64,000 nucleotides of DNA from an uncultured Bacilli bacterium (lineage in GTDB: Bacteria; Bacillota_I; Bacilli_A; RF39; UBA660). This document shows positions 11,357-17,190 of this stretch, in pieces. Each line of letters opens with the position of its first letter. Position 1 is the first letter of the stretch. The notes beneath the pieces are model-generated. The model saw only the letters and a list, made by a program, of their open reading frames with translations. It did not search any database and was not told the DNA's origin. The stretch lies in contig CANQON010000002.1 in NCBI GenBank assembly GCA_947625505.1, forward strand, positions 73,984-137,983, given 5' to 3'. A program made the translations under genes and the position numbers.

Positions 11357-12208
11357 ATGAAATGGTATTCGGGTCGTTATGACAGAGCTTTTAAAGAGGT
11401 CATGTTAAAAGAATCTAATCAAGATATCTTAAAATCATTGTTAGAGAAAATCCTTAATCTACAAATTAGTTCTATGCGTATTTTAAATAATGAACGTTTA
11501 AGAGATAATGTTCATATAAAAGGACAAAGGCTTGATCTTATCTTAGATACTAATATTGGTAAAATTAATGTTGAAGTTAACTCAAGCTATAAAGATTACG
11601 TTAGATATCGTAATACAGCCTATCTATGTGATATCTATGCTCATGATATTTTAGTAGGACATAACTATGATGGGAATATGAAATATATTCAAATAAACTT
11701 ATCATATGATTTAGGATATAATAGTGGAAGTATCAATATATATAAAATAAAAAATGAAGAAGATAAGACATATATCGATAACTTTATCATTTATGATGTA
11801 AACATGGATTATTATATGAACTTATGGTATACTAAAAGTGAAGAGATAAAAGATAATGTCATGTTAGTAATGATAGGATTAGAGAAAGAAGAACTAACAA
11901 AGTTATCGAAAAAAGATAGGATGGTATCACGATATATGAGCGAATTAAATAAAGTAAATGAAGAACCAGAGTTTAGAGAATACATGAGTTACGAAGAAGA
12001 TCAAAGAAAGATAAGGAATAGCTTAATAGCTGAAAGTAGAGCTGAAGGCCTTGAAGAAGGACACGAAAAAGGTCTTGAAGAAGGAAAGAATGAGCGTAAT
12101 AAAGAGATAGCTAAAAAATTACTTGAAAAAGGTATGGCAATTGATTTTATAATGGATACGACAAACATGACTGAAGAAGAGATTCTAAAATTAAAGGAAG
12201 AGAACTAA
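11357..12208 (+). CDS. Rpn-family / PD-(D/E)XK nuclease 'transposase-like' protein
   Basis: N-terminus D-R-A-FKEVM...ILKSLLEKIL. Nuclease core RLDLILDT...INVEVN...RYRNTAYLCDIY. Characteristic C-terminal EG-repeat helix plus tail (AEGLEEGHEKGLEEGKNERNKEIAKKLLEKGMAIDFIMDTTNMTEEEI). Confidence 0.65.
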   Translation: MKWYSGRYDRAFKEVMLKESNQDILKSLLEKILNLQISSMRILNNERLRDNVHIKGQRLDLILDTNIGKINVEVNSSYKDYVRYRNTAYLCDIYAHDILVGHNYDGNMKYIQINLSYDLGYNSGSINIYKIKNEEDKTYIDNFIIYDVNMDYYMNLWYTKSEEIKDNVMLVMIGLEKEELTKLSKKDRMVSRYMSELNKVNEEPEFREYMSYEEDQRKIRNSLIAESRAEGLEEGHEKGLEEGKNERNKEIAKKLLEKGMAIDFIMDTTNMTEEEILKLKEEN

Positions 12209-12245: not shown

Positions 12246-12274
12246 TTGACTTTTAAAAACATTTGTAGTATTAT
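12246..12274 (+). promoter_or_regulatory. Sigma-A-type promoter for the leader and ABC/GNAT operon
   Basis: TTGACT (12246-12251), 17-nt spacer, TATTAT (12269-12274). Confidence 0.55.
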
Positions 12275-12286
12275 CTTTGATGTCGA

Positions 12287-12384
12287 GTGAGTATGTATAA
12301 GATTTTTCGAGCTACATAGGGTTAATAACTTACACGTTGTATTAAAACACGGAGTCACTATTAATAGTACTTCGTGTTTTTTTG
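12287..12384 (+). ncRNA. Unclassified structured leader element, copy 1 (aptamer-like hairpins plus intrinsic terminator)
   Basis: GTGAGTATGTATAAG...CGAGCTACATA forms hairpin TATGTA/TACATA. A second hairpin is GGTT-AAT-AACT. Then ACACG, followed by the terminator ACACGGAGT...ACTTCGTGT and T7. Local G+C island. Confidence 0.6.
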
Positions 12385-12419: not shown

Positions 12420-12512
12420 GTGAGTATGTATAAGTTTTACGAGCTACATAAGGGATTGCACCCTACACGTTTACACGGAGTCACATTATGCAATAGCGAC
12501 TTCGTGTTTTTT
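12420..12512 (+). ncRNA. Unclassified structured leader element, copy 2 (aptamer-like hairpins plus intrinsic terminator)
   Basis: Same conserved blocks as copy 1. The second hairpin has a different sequence but is still paired (AGGG-ATTGCA-CCCT). Terminator ACACGGAGTC...GACTTCGTGT followed by T6. Confidence 0.6.
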
Positions 12513-12555: not shown

Positions 12556-13539
12556 ATGAATGAGAAAGCTATTATTGTAAAGAACTTATCTAAAACTTTT
12601 AGAGTTAAAGAAAAAGAAAAAGGCTTCAAAGGGAGTATAAAAAGTATTTTTAAAACGAAATATCGTGAAATAAAAGCTGTTAATGATTTATCTTTTGATG
12701 TTGATAAAGGTGAGATATTAGCTTTTATAGGACCTAATGGAGCAGGAAAAAGTACAACTATTAAAATGCTTACAGGAATATTATTCCCAGATCAAGGAAC
12801 AGTAGAAGTAATGGGAATAGATCCTAAAAAGAAGCGTAAAAAACTAGCTTATGAAATTGGTACAGTATTTGGACAAAAAGAACAATTATGGACCCATTTA
12901 ACACCTTATGATAACTTTAAATTCTTTGGCGCTATATATGATATCGACGATTATACAGTTGAAAAAAGAATTAAAGAATTAAAGGATATGTTTGAATTAG
13001 ATGAATTCATTAATACACCTGTCCGTAATTTGTCTTTAGGTCAAAGAATTAGATGTGAAATTGTAGCTTCCTTAATACATAAACCTAAAATATTATTCTT
13101 AGATGAACCTACGATTGGATTAGATCCTGTTGTTAAAGAAAATATTCGTACCCTTATTAAAAGAATGAATAAAGAATATCATACAACAGTCTTTTTAACT
13201 AGTCATGATGTAGGTGATATCGAAAAGTTATGTAAAAGAATTATTATTGTTAATCATGGACAAATAGTTTTAGATGACTCTATGGAAAACTTAAAGTATC
13301 ATTATTTAAATAAAAAAATCGTTGAAGCTAAAATGAAAGAAAAAGTTAATTTAAATGATGAAGATGGTATTACTATTTTAAAAGACAAAGGTTATAACTT
13401 AAAAATAGAAGTAGATACAACGAAACGTAGTGTCGGTGACGCTATTAAATTATTAAATCCTAATAATATTATTGATATTAATATATCTAATATTCCTTTA
13501 GAGGATATTATTAGTGATATTTATAAGAGGGATAAATAA
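12556..13539 (+). CDS. ABC transporter ATP-binding protein
   Basis: Walker A GPNGAGKST, signature LSLGQR, Walker B ILFLDEPT. AGGAGG RBS. Confidence 0.9.
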   Translation: MNEKAIIVKNLSKTFRVKEKEKGFKGSIKSIFKTKYREIKAVNDLSFDVDKGEILAFIGPNGAGKSTTIKMLTGILFPDQGTVEVMGIDPKKKRKKLAYEIGTVFGQKEQLWTHLTPYDNFKFFGAIYDIDDYTVEKRIKELKDMFELDEFINTPVRNLSLGQRIRCEIVASLIHKPKILFLDEPTIGLDPVVKENIRTLIKRMNKEYHTTVFLTSHDVGDIEKLCKRIIIVNHGQIVLDDSMENLKYHYLNKKIVEAKMKEKVNLNDEDGITILKDKGYNLKIEVDTTKRSVGDAIKLLNPNNIIDINISNIPLEDIISDIYKRDK

Positions 13540-14330
13540 TGCGTAAATACTTATATATATTTAAATCAGAAGTTATGACGAATATGCAATATATCTTTAA
13601 TCTATTAGTAGGTTTTATTAGTTATTTTATCTTAATCTTTATCTTCTTAAATCTATGGAAATACATTTATAGTGATTCTAATGAATTAATTAATGGCTAT
13701 AATATGAATCAAATGATATGGTATGTTATTATTACAGAAATATTATGGATGAGTTTAGGAGGACGTAAATTATGTCGTAAGATATGTGAAGATGTAAGAG
13801 GGGGAAACATTGCTTATAATATTAATAAACCTTATAGTTATATCGGATATATTTTATCTAGTCATTTAGGTAGTGTTGTTGTTAAAGGAAGTATATTTAC
13901 TATTTTAGGTATGTTATTAGGCCTTATCTTCTTAGGTAAGTTTCCTCATTTAACATTATTTAGTATTATCATAGTTTTAATTACCTCTCTTTTAGCAACT
14001 ATTATTAATACTTTATTTGTTATTTTTATTGGATTATTTTCTTTTATTATTGAAGATGCTAACCCATTCTGGTGGTTATATAGTAAAGTAATTTTAGTAT
14101 TTGGTACTTTATTTCCAATTGAGTATTTTCCAGGTATTATTAAAACAATCTTAAGTTATAGTCCAATATATGCTGTATCATATGGACCTGCTAAACTATT
14201 TGTTGACTTTAGTATTCCAAATATGGTTAATGTTATAATTGTTCAAATTATTTACTTAATAATTATTTATGTATTATGTTTATTAATATATAGGAAAGGG
14301 GTGAGAAAATTAAATGTTAACGGTGGTTAA
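13539..14330 (+). CDS. ABC-2-type permease (first of two)
   Basis: Polytopic membrane protein. Its start codon abuts the ATPase gene's stop codon. Confidence 0.75.
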   Translation: MRKYLYIFKSEVMTNMQYIFNLLVGFISYFILIFIFLNLWKYIYSDSNELINGYNMNQMIWYVIITEILWMSLGGRKLCRKICEDVRGGNIAYNINKPYSYIGYILSSHLGSVVVKGSIFTILGMLLGLIFLGKFPHLTLFSIIIVLITSLLATIINTLFVIFIGLFSFIIEDANPFWWLYSKVILVFGTLFPIEYFPGIIKTILSYSPIYAVSYGPAKLFVDFSIPNMVNVIIVQIIYLIIIYVLCLLIYRKGVRKLNVNGG

Positions 14331-15117
14331 AAATATCAAGAATCAACTTAAAGTATCTTTTTTAACAGTTAAATATGCATTGATAAGAGAAATGATTAAT
14401 AAGACAACCTTCTTAACTAATATTACTTTTATGATTTTAAATGATGCTAGTTTTATATTACAATGGATTGTATTATATGCTCTTAAAGATAATGTTGGAG
14501 GATATACTTTTAATCAAGTATTACTATTATGGGGTATAGCTGCTGGTACTTATGGATTTTCTCATTTCTTCTTTGAAAGTGCTTTTAACTTATCAGATAC
14601 AATTAATAATGGTAAACTAGATGCTTTCTTAGTTCAACCTAAAAATGTTTTAATTTCTACTATTACAATGAGTATTAGTGCATCGGCTATAGGTGATTTA
14701 GCGTATGCTTATATTATGTTATTTGTATTCGGGTTTACAATTAAAAATTTCTTATTATTTACTTTATTTTGTTTTACAGGTAGTTTAATTATAGTTAGTA
14801 TAGCTATTATCTTAGGTAGTTTATCTTTCTGGTTTAATAAATCTGATGTAATAGCTGATACAGGTAATAGCTTATTAACTAACTTTGCAACATATCCTGA
14901 TGGAATATTTAAAGGTATTACTAAAATATTATTTTATACCATTCTTCCTTTAGGTTATGTAGCTTATATGCCTGTTCAAATATTATCAAGTTTTAATATC
15001 AAATTATTTATACTTGTTATAAGTATAACCATTATGTTTATTACTTTAGCAGTCATTACATTCTATAGAGGATTAAGAAGATATTCATCTTCTAACTTAA
15101 TGATAGCTAGAACTTAA
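14314..15117 (+). CDS. ABC-2-type permease (second of two)
   Basis: Polytopic membrane protein. Overlaps the upstream permease gene by 17 nt. Confidence 0.75.
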   Translation: MLTVVKNIKNQLKVSFLTVKYALIREMINKTTFLTNITFMILNDASFILQWIVLYALKDNVGGYTFNQVLLLWGIAAGTYGFSHFFFESAFNLSDTINNGKLDAFLVQPKNVLISTITMSISASAIGDLAYAYIMLFVFGFTIKNFLLFTLFCFTGSLIIVSIAIILGSLSFWFNKSDVIADTGNSLLTNFATYPDGIFKGITKILFYTILPLGYVAYMPVQILSSFNIKLFILVISITIMFITLAVITFYRGLRRYSSSNLMIART

Positions 15118-15143
15118 ATAATATATAAAAAGGGGGTGATTAT

Positions 15144-15965
15144 ATGTCGAGAGTTAATGTTAACTCAAAAGTTTTTAAGACAGAAGCTTATTTAAAAGAT
15201 CAATATAAATTTTCTTTAGTTAAACAAAATTTAGCTAGTGCAGAAGTACTTCTATATAGTGATGATGAGAATTATCTTTTGTGTCGTGGTAATGAAAAAT
15301 ATCCAACATGGGTATGGACTAAAGATCATCTTTCAAAAGATAAATATTTAGAAGTTATGGAATCGATGAAATATTATTTAACTAATAGAGAAAAAGATAA
15401 ATTTACTTGTAAAAAAGAATTTTATGATTTTTTAGTTCAAGAAAATTATACATATTTAAATCTAGAAGATTATTTTGAAATGGGCTTTTTAAGATGTTAT
15501 CAAGTTAAAGAGCCTAAAACGTGTGATGGCTATTTAGATCATGCTTTAGAAAGTGATTTAGATCTTTTAGCGCAGTATTGGTATCAATCTAATCAAGAAA
15601 TGGGAGTAGAAACAAAAACATATGAAGAAGCATATGAAGAAATGAAAGATTTATATTTAGATGATACATTTTATGTATGGCGTAATAGTAAACATGAGGT
15701 AGTTAGTATGGCGTGCTACCGAGTAACAGAAGATGTCGCAAAAGTAGGACATGTTTTTACTAGTAAAGAAGAAAGAGGAAAAGGATATGCGGCTAATTTG
15801 GTTTATGCTTTAACTAAGTTATTATTAGAATATAATTATGTTCCATTACTATATACCGATTTACATTATCCAGCATCTAATAAAGCATATCAAAATGTTG
15901 GTTATGAAGATGAAGGAATGTTAGTTAACTTTTCTTGTTCGAAAGTTAAAAAAGATAGGAGGTAA
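15144..15965 (+). CDS. GNAT-family N-acetyltransferase with an N-terminal extra domain
   Basis: Acetyl-CoA loop EERGKGYAANLVYALTKLLL in the C-terminal half. GGGGGTGA RBS. Confidence 0.65.
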   Translation: MSRVNVNSKVFKTEAYLKDQYKFSLVKQNLASAEVLLYSDDENYLLCRGNEKYPTWVWTKDHLSKDKYLEVMESMKYYLTNREKDKFTCKKEFYDFLVQENYTYLNLEDYFEMGFLRCYQVKEPKTCDGYLDHALESDLDLLAQYWYQSNQEMGVETKTYEEAYEEMKDLYLDDTFYVWRNSKHEVVSMACYRVTEDVAKVGHVFTSKEERGKGYAANLVYALTKLLLEYNYVPLLYTDLHYPASNKAYQNVGYEDEGMLVNFSCSKVKKDRR

Positions 15966-15967
15966 CT

Positions 15968-16561
15968 ATGGATAGATTAAATTTAGTAACACCAACACTA
16001 GAATATAAAGATGCAGCCATTGATTATATCAATGAGTTTATTAAGTATAATTCTGATATTAATGGTGTTGGAGGTTTAAATAGATATTTAGATGATTATG
16101 AGGGTTGGTTAGTTAAAATAGAAGAAGATAAAAATAGAATTCCAACGGAAGAAAAAGTACCCGCTTTAACTTATTTCTTAGTTAGAGAAAGTGATAATCG
16201 GATAGTTGGAATGATTAATATTCGTTTAGCATTAAATGAAAAGTTAAGGAAGGGTAGTGGACATATAGGTTATTCGATTAGACCTACTGAAAGAAGAAAA
16301 GGGTATAATAAAATAAATTTATATTTAGGATTAAAAGTATGCTTAGAACATGGCATTAAAGAAGTTATTATGGATTGCGATAAATCGAATATTGCATCTG
16401 CTAAAACAATGCTTGCTTTTGGAGCACACTTAGATCGTGAAGATTATATAGATTCTGATGGTGACTTAGTACAACACTATACAATTGATACTGAAAAAGC
16501 TATTAATGATAGCAAAGATATATATGAATCTGATAACAAAGTAAAGAAGGTGAAACAATGA
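15968..16561 (+). CDS. GNAT-family N-acetyltransferase
   Basis: Motif TERRKGYNKINLYLGLKVCLEHG. Starts 2 nt after the upstream stop codon. Confidence 0.65.
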   Translation: MDRLNLVTPTLEYKDAAIDYINEFIKYNSDINGVGGLNRYLDDYEGWLVKIEEDKNRIPTEEKVPALTYFLVRESDNRIVGMINIRLALNEKLRKGSGHIGYSIRPTERRKGYNKINLYLGLKVCLEHGIKEVIMDCDKSNIASAKTMLAFGAHLDREDYIDSDGDLVQHYTIDTEKAINDSKDIYESDNKVKKVKQ

Positions 16562-17100
16562 AATATTATCATAAGATAGATGGTGAAAAGATATATCTAT
16601 CACCTGTTAATATGGAAGATATTGATAAATATACTAAATGGTTTAATGATTTTGAAGTAACTAAAGGAGTACATGCTACACAAAAGTTAGTTAATCAAGA
16701 ACAAGAAAAAGAATCTTTAGAACAATTATTATTAAAAAGTCCTTATACATTTGCTATTGTAAGAAAAGATAATGATGAATTAATCGGTAACTGTAGTTTA
16801 AATAAAGTTAATTTTTTAGATGGTACGGCTACAATTGGAATCTTTATAGGAGAAGAAGAGAATCGTAATAAAGGTTATGGAACAGATACAATTAGAACTT
16901 TACTTAAGTATGGCTTTGATATCATTAATTTGCATAATATTGATTTAAAAGTTTTCTCTTTTAATGAAGGTGCTATTAAATGTTATCAAAAAGCAGGATT
17001 AAAAGAGTATGGCAGAAAGCATGAATGTTATTATTTAAATAATAAATATTATGATGAAATATATATGGAAATATTACGTGATGATTTCTATAATAATTAA
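16558..17100 (+). CDS. GNAT-family N-acetyltransferase (RimJ/RimL-like)
   Basis: Motif ENRNKGYGTDTIRTLLKYGF. ATGA start/stop overlap with the upstream gene. Confidence 0.7.
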   Translation: MKYYHKIDGEKIYLSPVNMEDIDKYTKWFNDFEVTKGVHATQKLVNQEQEKESLEQLLLKSPYTFAIVRKDNDELIGNCSLNKVNFLDGTATIGIFIGEEENRNKGYGTDTIRTLLKYGFDIINLHNIDLKVFSFNEGAIKCYQKAGLKEYGRKHECYYLNNKYYDEIYMEILRDDFYNN

Positions 17101-17108
17101 AACAAAAA

Positions 17109-17135
17109 TAAGGCACATAATGTGCCTTTTTATTT
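17109..17135 (+). terminator. Rho-independent terminator ending the ABC/GNAT operon
   Basis: Stem AGGCACA / TGTGCCT with loop TAA, followed by a T-run. Confidence 0.7.
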
Positions 17136-17190
17136 GACTTTGTAGTTATAAAATGCTACTATAAAAATGTTGGAACGTTTAGGGGGCAAA

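Follow-up and report, generated by a model that had tools for sequence, protein, structure and literature searches.

We analyzed a 64,000-nt stretch of contig CANQON010000002.1 from an uncultured Bacilli bacterium (GCA_947625505.1; here called the window, the positions of which serve as coordinates below), focusing on six co-directional genes on the plus strand at 12556-17100. These genes encode an ATP-binding cassette (ABC) ATPase, two permeases, and three GNAT N-acetyltransferases (open reading frame [ORF] list and Pfam/NCBIfam matches), and they lie behind two consecutive copies of a structured RNA leader. With slightly better than even confidence, we read this unit as a ligand-induced detoxification or resistance operon that would couple export with acetylation. 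Its genes are tightly coupled, both leader copies and the 3' end of the operon carry terminators, the leader fold covaries among relatives, and the linkage of the leader to ABC genes and to GNAT genes recurs in other genomes. From these features, we infer that the leader binds a ligand and is switched on by it, that the ABC proteins act in export, and that the substrate bears an amine and is probably cationic.

Organization of the operon

The exporter genes (all features of this section are on the plus strand) comprise an ATPase gene (12556..13539; 327 amino acids [aa]; DrrA/NatA-like with a C-terminal extension; PF00005, 3e-31) and two ABC-2 permease genes of the PF06182/DUF990 family (13539..14330, 263 aa, 54.9 bits to PF06182; and 14314..15117, 267 aa, 106.5 bits). 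They are followed by genes for GNAT1, a tandem-GNAT protein (15144..15965; 273 aa; Acetyltransf_1/FR47), GNAT2, a single-domain GNAT (15968..16561; 197 aa; Acetyltransf_1/3), and GNAT3, an Acetyltransf_3/4 GNAT with SpeG and AAC(6') relatives (16558..17100; 180 aa). From the ATPase gene onward, adjacent genes overlap by 1 nt and then by 17 nt, are separated by 26 nt and then by 2 nt, and finally overlap by 4 nt. The 26-nt space in front of GNAT1 has a strong Shine-Dalgarno sequence (AAGGGGGTGA) and no RNA structure (z, +0.26). A scan of the plus strand found no terminator-like sites inside the operon, and promoter-like matches did not exceed the shuffle expectation (67 found versus 76 expected). 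An intrinsic terminator closes the operon at 17110..17135 (17110-17128, -11.7 kcal/mol; z, -4.5).

Judged by sequence, a single-operon layout is supported. A preliminary description of this DNA had reported six tightly packed genes at 12556-17100, abutting or overlapping with a sole 26-nt gap before the first GNAT, placed them between a tandem leader and a single terminator, and interpreted them as an ABC-2 exporter (ATPase and two permeases) with three different GNATs. This anatomy held throughout: all six ORFs agree in coordinates and strand, the genes overlap or nearly abut, folding z-scores support the terminator of each leader copy as well as the closing one, Pfam agrees with the gene assignments, and the GNATs fall into separate clusters.

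A tandem leader with riboswitch-like architecture

Leader copy 1 (12287..12383, plus strand) is a three-stem element that runs from GTGAG to GGAGTCAC (12287-12358) and has its 3' end in common with an intrinsic terminator (stem, 12347-12377; T-run to 12383; -15.0 kcal/mol; z, -5.7). Copy 2 (12420..12512, plus strand) is 80% identical to copy 1 and possesses its own terminator (element, 12420-12484; stem, 12473-12507; T-run to 12512; -13.8 kcal/mol; z, -4.2). A promoter-like site precedes the leader (TTGACT-17-TATTAT; 12246..12274, plus strand; a consensus match only, with 10/12 matches in a consensus scan), and TTGACA-like boxes likewise precede the leader in relatives. The leader is present at no second site in its own genome.

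We aligned 139 unique leader copies from related genomes to obtain a consensus fold. The consensus is a three-stem element with compensatory changes, in which P1 (GUGA:UCAC) is invariant, P2 consists of six pairs that are 100% canonical with 4 to 5 pair types per position, and P3 is a GGG...CCU hairpin. The joining strands CUACACG and ACGGAG are kept. The segment GGAGUCAC forms the 3' strand of P1 and also the 5' arm of the terminator; a stabilized P1 would therefore block termination, so that the leader would, by inference, act as an ON switch. A conserved, covarying fold that overlaps an intrinsic terminator is the architecture of a transcription-terminating riboswitch, with ligand binding as a prediction.

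Searches against Rfam 15 returned no family at its gathering score and only noise at E values of ≤10, and RF00442 (ykkC) had no match in the whole genome at an E value of ≤1. The segment GGAGUCAC did not occur in the part of the published Gd4v alignment used for comparison. The leader could not be placed in any of the known riboswitch classes considered (i.e., ykkC/guanidine-I, ppGpp, guanidine-II/III/IV, and Gd4v). We also considered leader-peptide attenuation, given that both copies carry a Shine-Dalgarno sequence followed by ATG-TAT-AAG (MYK...). This candidate was rejected because the apparent start codon lies in the covarying helix P2 and is lost in covarying copies (variants include UAUGUA/UACAUA, GAGAUA/UAUCUC, and UGUACA/UGUACA, and many copies have no start codon). 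According to the alignment, the leader is a structured RNA and not a leader-peptide attenuator.

GNATs in the regulon of the leader

The strict pattern GTGAG-N-TACAC-N-GGAGTCAC was found in 60 of the 401 genomes of the order, and a reversed control pattern was found in none. In a class-wide sample, the leader pattern was essentially confined to the family of the window. We classified the 60 leader places by the co-directional genes behind the leader, which could be read in 58 cases (the sequence was truncated in the other 2). The units contained GNATs without ABC genes in 23 places, both ABC and GNAT genes in 7, ABC genes only in 12, and neither in 16. In 22 of the 58 readable places, the gene immediately after the leader was a GNAT, and the families of the window recurred in these leader-anchored loci (GNAT1 in 3, GNAT2 in 7, and GNAT3 in 9).

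The first GNAT panel had been seeded from in-unit genes, and the count was repeated with unbiased Pfam detection. Among 78 first or second non-ABC genes behind leaders, 29 matched Acetyltransf_1 and 24 matched Acetyltransf_3, followed by Phosphodiest (6 genes), Peptidase_S51 (3), and MFS (2). No GNAT family had two or more members among 116 random control genes from the upstream flanks, and the background in the genome of the window is 11 PF00583 genes in 1.66 Mb. Since GNATs are enriched behind leaders in both the census and the Pfam tally, they are, by these counts, genuine and dominant members of the leader's regulon, with or without the pump. This linkage is the main support for the earlier proposal that export and N-acetylation are tied to a ligand-type leader: in relatives, the same leader precedes the pump, GNATs of the same families, or both. 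The GNATs are, however, not a fixed part of the unit.

Other genes behind the leader encode MFS transporters, an AP-superfamily phosphodiesterase, S51 peptidases, PNP_UDP_1 proteins, an HD hydrolase, an S-adenosylmethionine (SAM) methyltransferase, and a P-loop kinase. Going by their family assignments, these genes are likewise of the drug-modifying or export type. DUF5662 proteins and several Pfam-less families also recur. Three leader-led, transporter-free units (L178:444-3438, L180, and L182) have the order type I phosphodiesterase/nucleotide pyrophosphatase, Peptidase_S51, RimJ/L-type GNAT, Peptidase_S51, and, optionally, a further GNAT. In another unit (L168), the leader precedes GNAT2, behind which the same phosphodiesterase is encoded. 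GNAT2-family genes directly behind the leader are split in L165:494-1122 (87 and 123 aa) and shortened in L171:620-805 (62 aa), and are apparent pseudogenes of leader cargo.

Conserved core and variable cargo

Of 19 species sampled in the genus, 13 had orthologs of the ABC genes, as did one further genus of the same family. In these 14 loci, the ATPase is 76 to 84% identical and the permeases are 40 to 67% identical to those of the window, with the leader upstream in nearly all of them. No GNAT follows the ABC genes in 11 of the 14 loci, where permease 2 usually precedes a gene for a ~525-aa membrane-anchored protein, with obg next. In the sister species whose ATPase is most similar (84%), the flanks are the same (dicarboxylate symporter, leader, ABC genes, and HAD/ligase genes), and the three GNATs and an upstream Rpn-like gene are missing. 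Since the block is missing between the same flanks, it represents a ~2-kb indel between species. The preliminary description had suggested checking whether the six-gene set is conserved together with the leader. The set is not conserved; the leader and the three ABC genes are a stable core and the GNATs vary. As far as these loci indicate, the leader and ABC genes are a conserved core, with GNATs as interchangeable cargo.

A broader scan for permease-2 orthologs, with one genome per GTDB species, yielded 80 loci (about 55 to 71% identical; 79 usable), all from metagenome-assembled genomes (MAGs) of uncultured gut Bacilli (e.g., "Mycoplasma sp. CAG:877," Ca. Faecimonas, and Ca. Onthousia). The leader pattern was upstream of the ATPase in 58 of the 79 loci, and GNATs were found inside the leader-to-tail unit in 21. 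GNATs made up 33 of the 168 non-ABC genes inside the units versus 4 of the 688 genes outside. The families of the window recurred inside ABC units (GNAT2 in 10 loci, GNAT1 in 8, and GNAT3 in 6) in several orders or combinations (GNAT3-GNAT1, GNAT3-GNAT2, and GNAT1...GNAT2); the exact triple GNAT1-GNAT2-GNAT3 was found only in this window among the ABC-anchored loci. A maximum-likelihood tree built from the concatenated ABC proteins required 10 changes in GNAT presence, at least 6 of which are forced by well-supported branches. In three loci, GNATs are placed between a leader copy and the ATPase. A MAG met through its GNAT1 homolog has the order leader, unknown gene, leader, ABC genes, GNAT, HD, GNAT1, GNAT, and GNAT2-like gene.

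Two leader copies were present in 17 of the 20 units with GNAT cargo versus 8 of the 52 without (loci L044 to L123). We considered whether tandem leaders are tied to GNAT cargo. The raw counts (17/25 versus 3/47) contain only 4 phylogenetically independent pairs, and the association was not significant. A family of proteins encoded between leader copies (f3; 180 to 250 aa; no Pfam match) occurs in the order leader, f3, leader, and ABC genes in 14 of the 80 loci (e.g., L044:5400-6050, L046, L053, L055, L086, L088, and L104), and a related family (f80) occurs in L061 and L073. Protein-dependent antitermination through such inter-leader proteins (i.e., f3/f80, f58, a 142-aa family, and a 263-aa family) was rejected as a candidate mechanism: because the genome of the window has no homologs of them, they are not required for the leader here.

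GNAT homologs away from the leader

Homologs of GNAT2 and one homolog of GNAT1 were found in arrays that have no leader and combine up to seven GNATs with genes for NUDIX, kinase, nucleosidase, and esterase proteins; in a Lachnospiraceae MAG, a GNAT1 homolog was without such neighbors. An array in a Clostridia MAG (L042:3700-12843) consists of YjbR, AAA_28, Peptidase_S51, GNAT, GNAT1 homolog, GNAT, and esterase genes and adjoins genes for a relaxase, a type IV secretion system (T4SS) coupling protein, and a primase; this gene content suggests that a conjugative element carries the array. An array met through a GNAT2 homolog (L133:600-5606) contains seven GNAT genes in close succession (one encodes a double-domain protein), interrupted by two small Pfam-less ORFs and a PNP_UDP_1 gene, without a leader or ABC genes. 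The genome of the window itself harbors a leaderless GNAT cluster (contig C22:891-3458) that encodes two GNATs (165 and 160 aa), a 329-aa protein, and a RimJ/L-type GNAT (180 aa). The 329-aa protein, judged by eye, is presumably a kinase of the APH/choline-kinase type. Two more GNATs are encoded on contig C11.

Arrays of this kind bear on the idea that the 3' end of the operon and the space behind leaders are merely a permissive landing site for mobile small-gene arrays, in which case the substrates of the GNATs would be unrelated to the pump substrate or the leader ligand. The insertion of the GNAT block relative to the sister species between identical flanks would fit this idea, as would the leaderless arrays of GNAT2 homologs with NUDIX, kinase, and nucleosidase genes, the GNAT1 homolog in the array on the conjugative element, and the second, leaderless GNAT cluster in the same genome. 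However, in 22 of 58 places a GNAT directly follows the leader with no ABC gene present, and GNATs greatly exceed their frequency in the flanks, also when unbiased Pfam detection is used. Moreover, the same few families recur after at least six independent events, and a neutral site would have gathered more random genes. We consider a pure passenger status of the GNATs quite unlikely.

The DUF990-type exporter

DUF990-type ABC transporters are widespread, and to our knowledge they have essentially no assigned function beyond one cyanobacterial viologen exporter. The ATPase of the window scored 247 bits against TIGR01188 (drrA), which is below the cut-off of this NCBIfam model, and its translation contains Walker A (GPNGAGKST), signature (LSLGQR), and Walker B (ILFLDEPT) motifs. 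Both permeases match PF06182 (ABC2_membrane_6) above the gathering score (cut-off, 22 bits). The pump has a separate ATPase with these motifs and two distinct permeases, and no gene for a substrate-binding protein was found in the operon or its flanks (ORFs and Pfam), which is the make-up of the DUF990/ethyl-viologen-exporter (EVE) family. By its domain matches, the pump belongs to this family (PF06182; TCDB 3.A.1.141).

A paralogous DUF990 ABC system in the same genome (contig C41:268-2811; L037) is 46% identical in the ATPase and 27% identical in the permease, and it has no leader copy. A plasmid search with permease 2 returned only distant DUF990 systems (≤30% identity), with no GNATs on the one plasmid inspected. 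That plasmid (NZ_CP027399.1; L225; 10.7 kb), from the cultured fusobacterium Streptobacillus moniliformis (Fusobacteriota), encodes a DUF990-type ATPase and two permeases (30% identity to permease 2) and carries no GNAT annotations.

Operons that combine a natA-like ATPase with COG3694 and COG4587 ("unknown functions") make up one of the three classes of genes under (p)ppGpp riboswitches, and ykkC subtype 2a (p)ppGpp riboswitches precede these ABC operons in Clostridiales, Cohnella, and Paenibacillus (PMC6003355 and PMC9881157). This precedent raises the alternative that the leader senses an endogenous signal (e.g., [p]ppGpp or another nucleotide alarmone) and not a xenobiotic. The pump and GNATs would then be stress effectors, acting, for example, in the acetylation of ribosomal proteins or polyamines and in export during starvation or envelope stress. 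In addition to the shared ABC operon type, the genome encodes one Rel/RSH enzyme, and GNAT2 and g109 belong to the RimJ/RimL fold class. Against an alarmone stands the leader itself, which matches neither ykkC nor any other Rfam family. The cargo, moreover, differs greatly between sister species, is partly carried by a conjugative element, and comprises, among others, hydrolases, kinases, and methyltransferases of the kinds that typically modify xenobiotics; such variability is unusual for a core stress regulon and weakens the case further. Amino acid biosynthesis genes are the main targets of ppGpp riboswitches, and they are not recurrent behind this leader, where a single isopropylmalate-synthase-like ORF was seen. 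We therefore regard an alarmone or stress regulon as unlikely, although it retains an appreciable share of our confidence.

The three GNATs

GNAT1, GNAT2, and GNAT3 score 35.0, 35.1, and 43.8 bits, respectively, against Acetyltransf_1 (cut-off, 20.7), and all three contain the acetyl coenzyme A (acetyl-CoA) motif R-x-x-G-x-G/A/N (RGKGYA in the C-terminal domain of GNAT1, RRKGYN in GNAT2, and RNKGYG in GNAT3). With a domain above the curated cut-off and this motif, each is a GNAT superfamily member, and the three are unrelated to one another in sequence, forming separate clusters. Single-sequence and profile searches of the PDB with GNAT1 and GNAT2 gave nothing informative. The preliminary description had recommended comparing predicted structures with characterized enzymes, and the models of GNAT1 and GNAT2 do adopt GNAT folds, although GNAT1 has no close characterized relative and the best match of GNAT2 is weak. 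The GNAT1 model (predicted local distance difference test [pLDDT], 93.1) matches tandem GNATs (i.e., 3iwg, VipF, GLYAT [glycine N-acyltransferase], MshD, and PamZ). The GNAT2 model (pLDDT, 92.3) is closest in fold to the microcin C immunity acetyltransferase MccE (3r96; template modeling [TM] score, 0.64/0.72; 18% identity), with SpeG, PAT, RimL, and RimJ scoring marginally below, and GNAT2 matched neither a RimL nor an MccE model in NCBIfam. The GNAT2 family has 4,619 homologs, the best 120 of which are mostly 61 to 72% identical and include Clostridia-labeled MAGs; as these searches suggest, it is a very widespread and highly conserved family.

GNAT3 had been described as RimL-like, the type used against processed microcin C. 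This label proved imprecise, since GNAT3 reaches no NCBIfam equivalog cut-off and its best solved relatives in a PDB search are AAC(6') (6erd; 4e-14) and SpeG (1e-12). It scored 29.6 bits against the RimL equivalog PRK10151 (cut-off, 184), 43.3 bits against the SpeG equivalog PRK15130 (cut-off, 218), at best 31.8 bits against AAC(6') models of NCBIfam (cut-off, 250), and 58 bits against the PseH model (cut-off, 93). The protein nearest MccE/RimL in fold is GNAT2.

The resemblance of GNAT2 to MccE bears on a more specific possibility, namely, defense against aminoacyl-nucleotide ("Trojan horse," microcin-C-like) or nucleoside-type toxins. In that case, the processed toxin would be acetylated on its alpha-amino group by the GNATs, cleaved by S51 peptidases, phosphodiesterases, and nucleosidases, and removed from the cell by the pump. 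The best structural match of GNAT2 is indeed the AMP-bound form of MccE, and leader cargo elsewhere includes Peptidase_S51 (the aspartyl-dipeptidase family), type I phosphodiesterase/nucleotide pyrophosphatase, PNP_UDP_1 (nucleosidase-type), and HD enzymes. Yet the match (18% identity) is weak and barely above those to SpeG, PAT, RimL, and RimJ, none of these hydrolases is encoded in the operon of the window, and MccF-type S66 peptidases and HIT phosphoramidases were not seen. We judge this specific version very unlikely.

Genomic surroundings

The flanking genes encode a dicarboxylate symporter, an Rpn-like nuclease, a HAD-acyl-AMP ligase fusion, and a PlsC acyltransferase (Pfam). No biosynthetic cluster was found among the neighbors (ORFs and Pfam), and self-immunity, which the preliminary description had offered as one possible role of the module, is therefore unlikely. 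A promoter-like match for the next gene follows the closing terminator (17134-17162, plus strand). The Rpn-like PD-(D/E)XK gene (11357-12208) lies between the dicarboxylate symporter gene and the leader. It is missing at the same position in four sister species (L023, L024, L026, and L027) and present in L028, and is a lineage-specific insertion adjoining the variable unit. The sole Rfam family at its gathering score in the window is 6S RNA (RF00013; 57652-57833; 66.2 bits).

Proposed mechanism and relation to known systems

In the export-plus-acetylation operon that we favor, each of the two consecutive riboswitch-like leader copies would fold by default into a terminator. A small molecule would stabilize the aptamer helix P1 (GUGA:UCAC) and sequester the 5' arm of the terminator, thereby allowing RNA polymerase to read through; this ON switch would be applied twice. 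Read-through would yield the three-component DUF990 ABC-2 exporter, which may expel the compound or its products, and the three GNAT N-acetyltransferases, which may neutralize the amino groups of this compound or of similar ones. The GNATs are exchangeable cargo, taken from a limited set of families that stand alone under the same leader in other genomes. A cationic or amine-bearing gut compound is the most plausible substrate, by analogy with the viologen precedent, the SpeG/AAC(6')/MccE-type relatives of the GNATs, and the guanidine-IV/Gd4v precedent.

Four observations weigh against this interpretation. Of the 58 readable leader units, 16 hold neither a GNAT nor an ABC gene. Close relatives carry different GNAT sets, and 58 of the 79 ABC loci have none, so that the pump need not be accompanied by acetylation. 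Homologs of both GNAT1 and GNAT2 are also found without a leader or ABC genes, those of GNAT2 in multi-GNAT arrays beside general housekeeping-type enzymes, which is compatible with broad or unrelated substrates. Lastly, the same ABC type occurs under (p)ppGpp riboswitches elsewhere (PMC6003355), which suggests an endogenous signal instead.

A riboswitch-type leader that drives efflux and modification is an already known kind of system. The combination of an orphan leader, a DUF990 ABC exporter, and modular GNAT cargo of multiple families in one gut Bacilli family was not described in the searchable literature. It is possible, at somewhat less than even confidence, that the operon is one representative of the regulon of an undescribed riboswitch class, which in the genomes sampled would be confined to one family of uncultured gut Bacilli. 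The outputs of such a regulon would be mainly GNATs of six or more families together with DUF990 ABC and MFS exporters, and its ligand would be a gut-borne cationic amine or aminoacyl-nucleoside-type toxin sensed by no known riboswitch. If so, the three GNATs offer a direct biochemical route to the ligand, as they are soluble enzymes amenable to substrate-profile screening, a strategy already used for Gd4v. DUF990-type ABC pumps sit behind riboswitches in several lineages, and an orphan leader over a pump and a recurring pool of GNATs, together or apart, makes the pump substrate and the leader ligand one testable question. The locus also illustrates the gain and loss of resistance-type cargo within a riboswitch-controlled unit among sister species of gut bacteria with reduced genomes.

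Among known systems, the pump resembles EvrABC of Synechocystis sp. PCC 6803, the characterized member of TCDB 3.A.1.141, which exports the dication ethyl viologen (cited through PMC5417439). Both have the same three-component ABC-2 make-up (i.e., one ATPase, two different DUF990 permeases, and no binding protein), a likeness that rests on family membership and description and not on direct sequence comparison. The unit of the window differs in having an RNA leader and GNAT genes, neither of which that source mentions for EvrABC. The ABC operons under (p)ppGpp riboswitches are of the same type and likewise stand behind a transcription-terminating riboswitch. The leader here, however, is not a ykkC RNA (no Rfam match), and the available portions of PMC6003355 and PMC9881157 mention no GNAT cargo. 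The enzymes have more distant counterparts: GNAT1 is like the tandem GNATs 3iwg, VipF, GLYAT, MshD, and PamZ at the fold level only, GNAT2 falls into the MccE/RimL/RimJ fold class, and GNAT3 aligns to SpeG and AAC(6') structures at 1e-12 to 4e-14, although no equivalog is reached and fold-level identities are only 12 to 19%.

The guanidine-IV (mepA) and Gd4v leaders provide a further comparison. They are terminator-based ON switches over efflux proteins and GNATs, and the GNATs tested there acetylate guanidino-amines (i.e., agmatine, arginine, and canavanine); the ligand of Gd4v was not identified, and the motif is enriched in gut bacteria (PMC9788692). Those systems use other RNAs, their exporters are of the MATE or SMR type and not DUF990 ABC pumps, and the main Gd4v gene class (transaminase) was not seen among the cargo here. 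Nevertheless, the regulons of guanidine-IV and Gd4v, like the unit described here, place exporters and GNATs together under a terminator-type leader.

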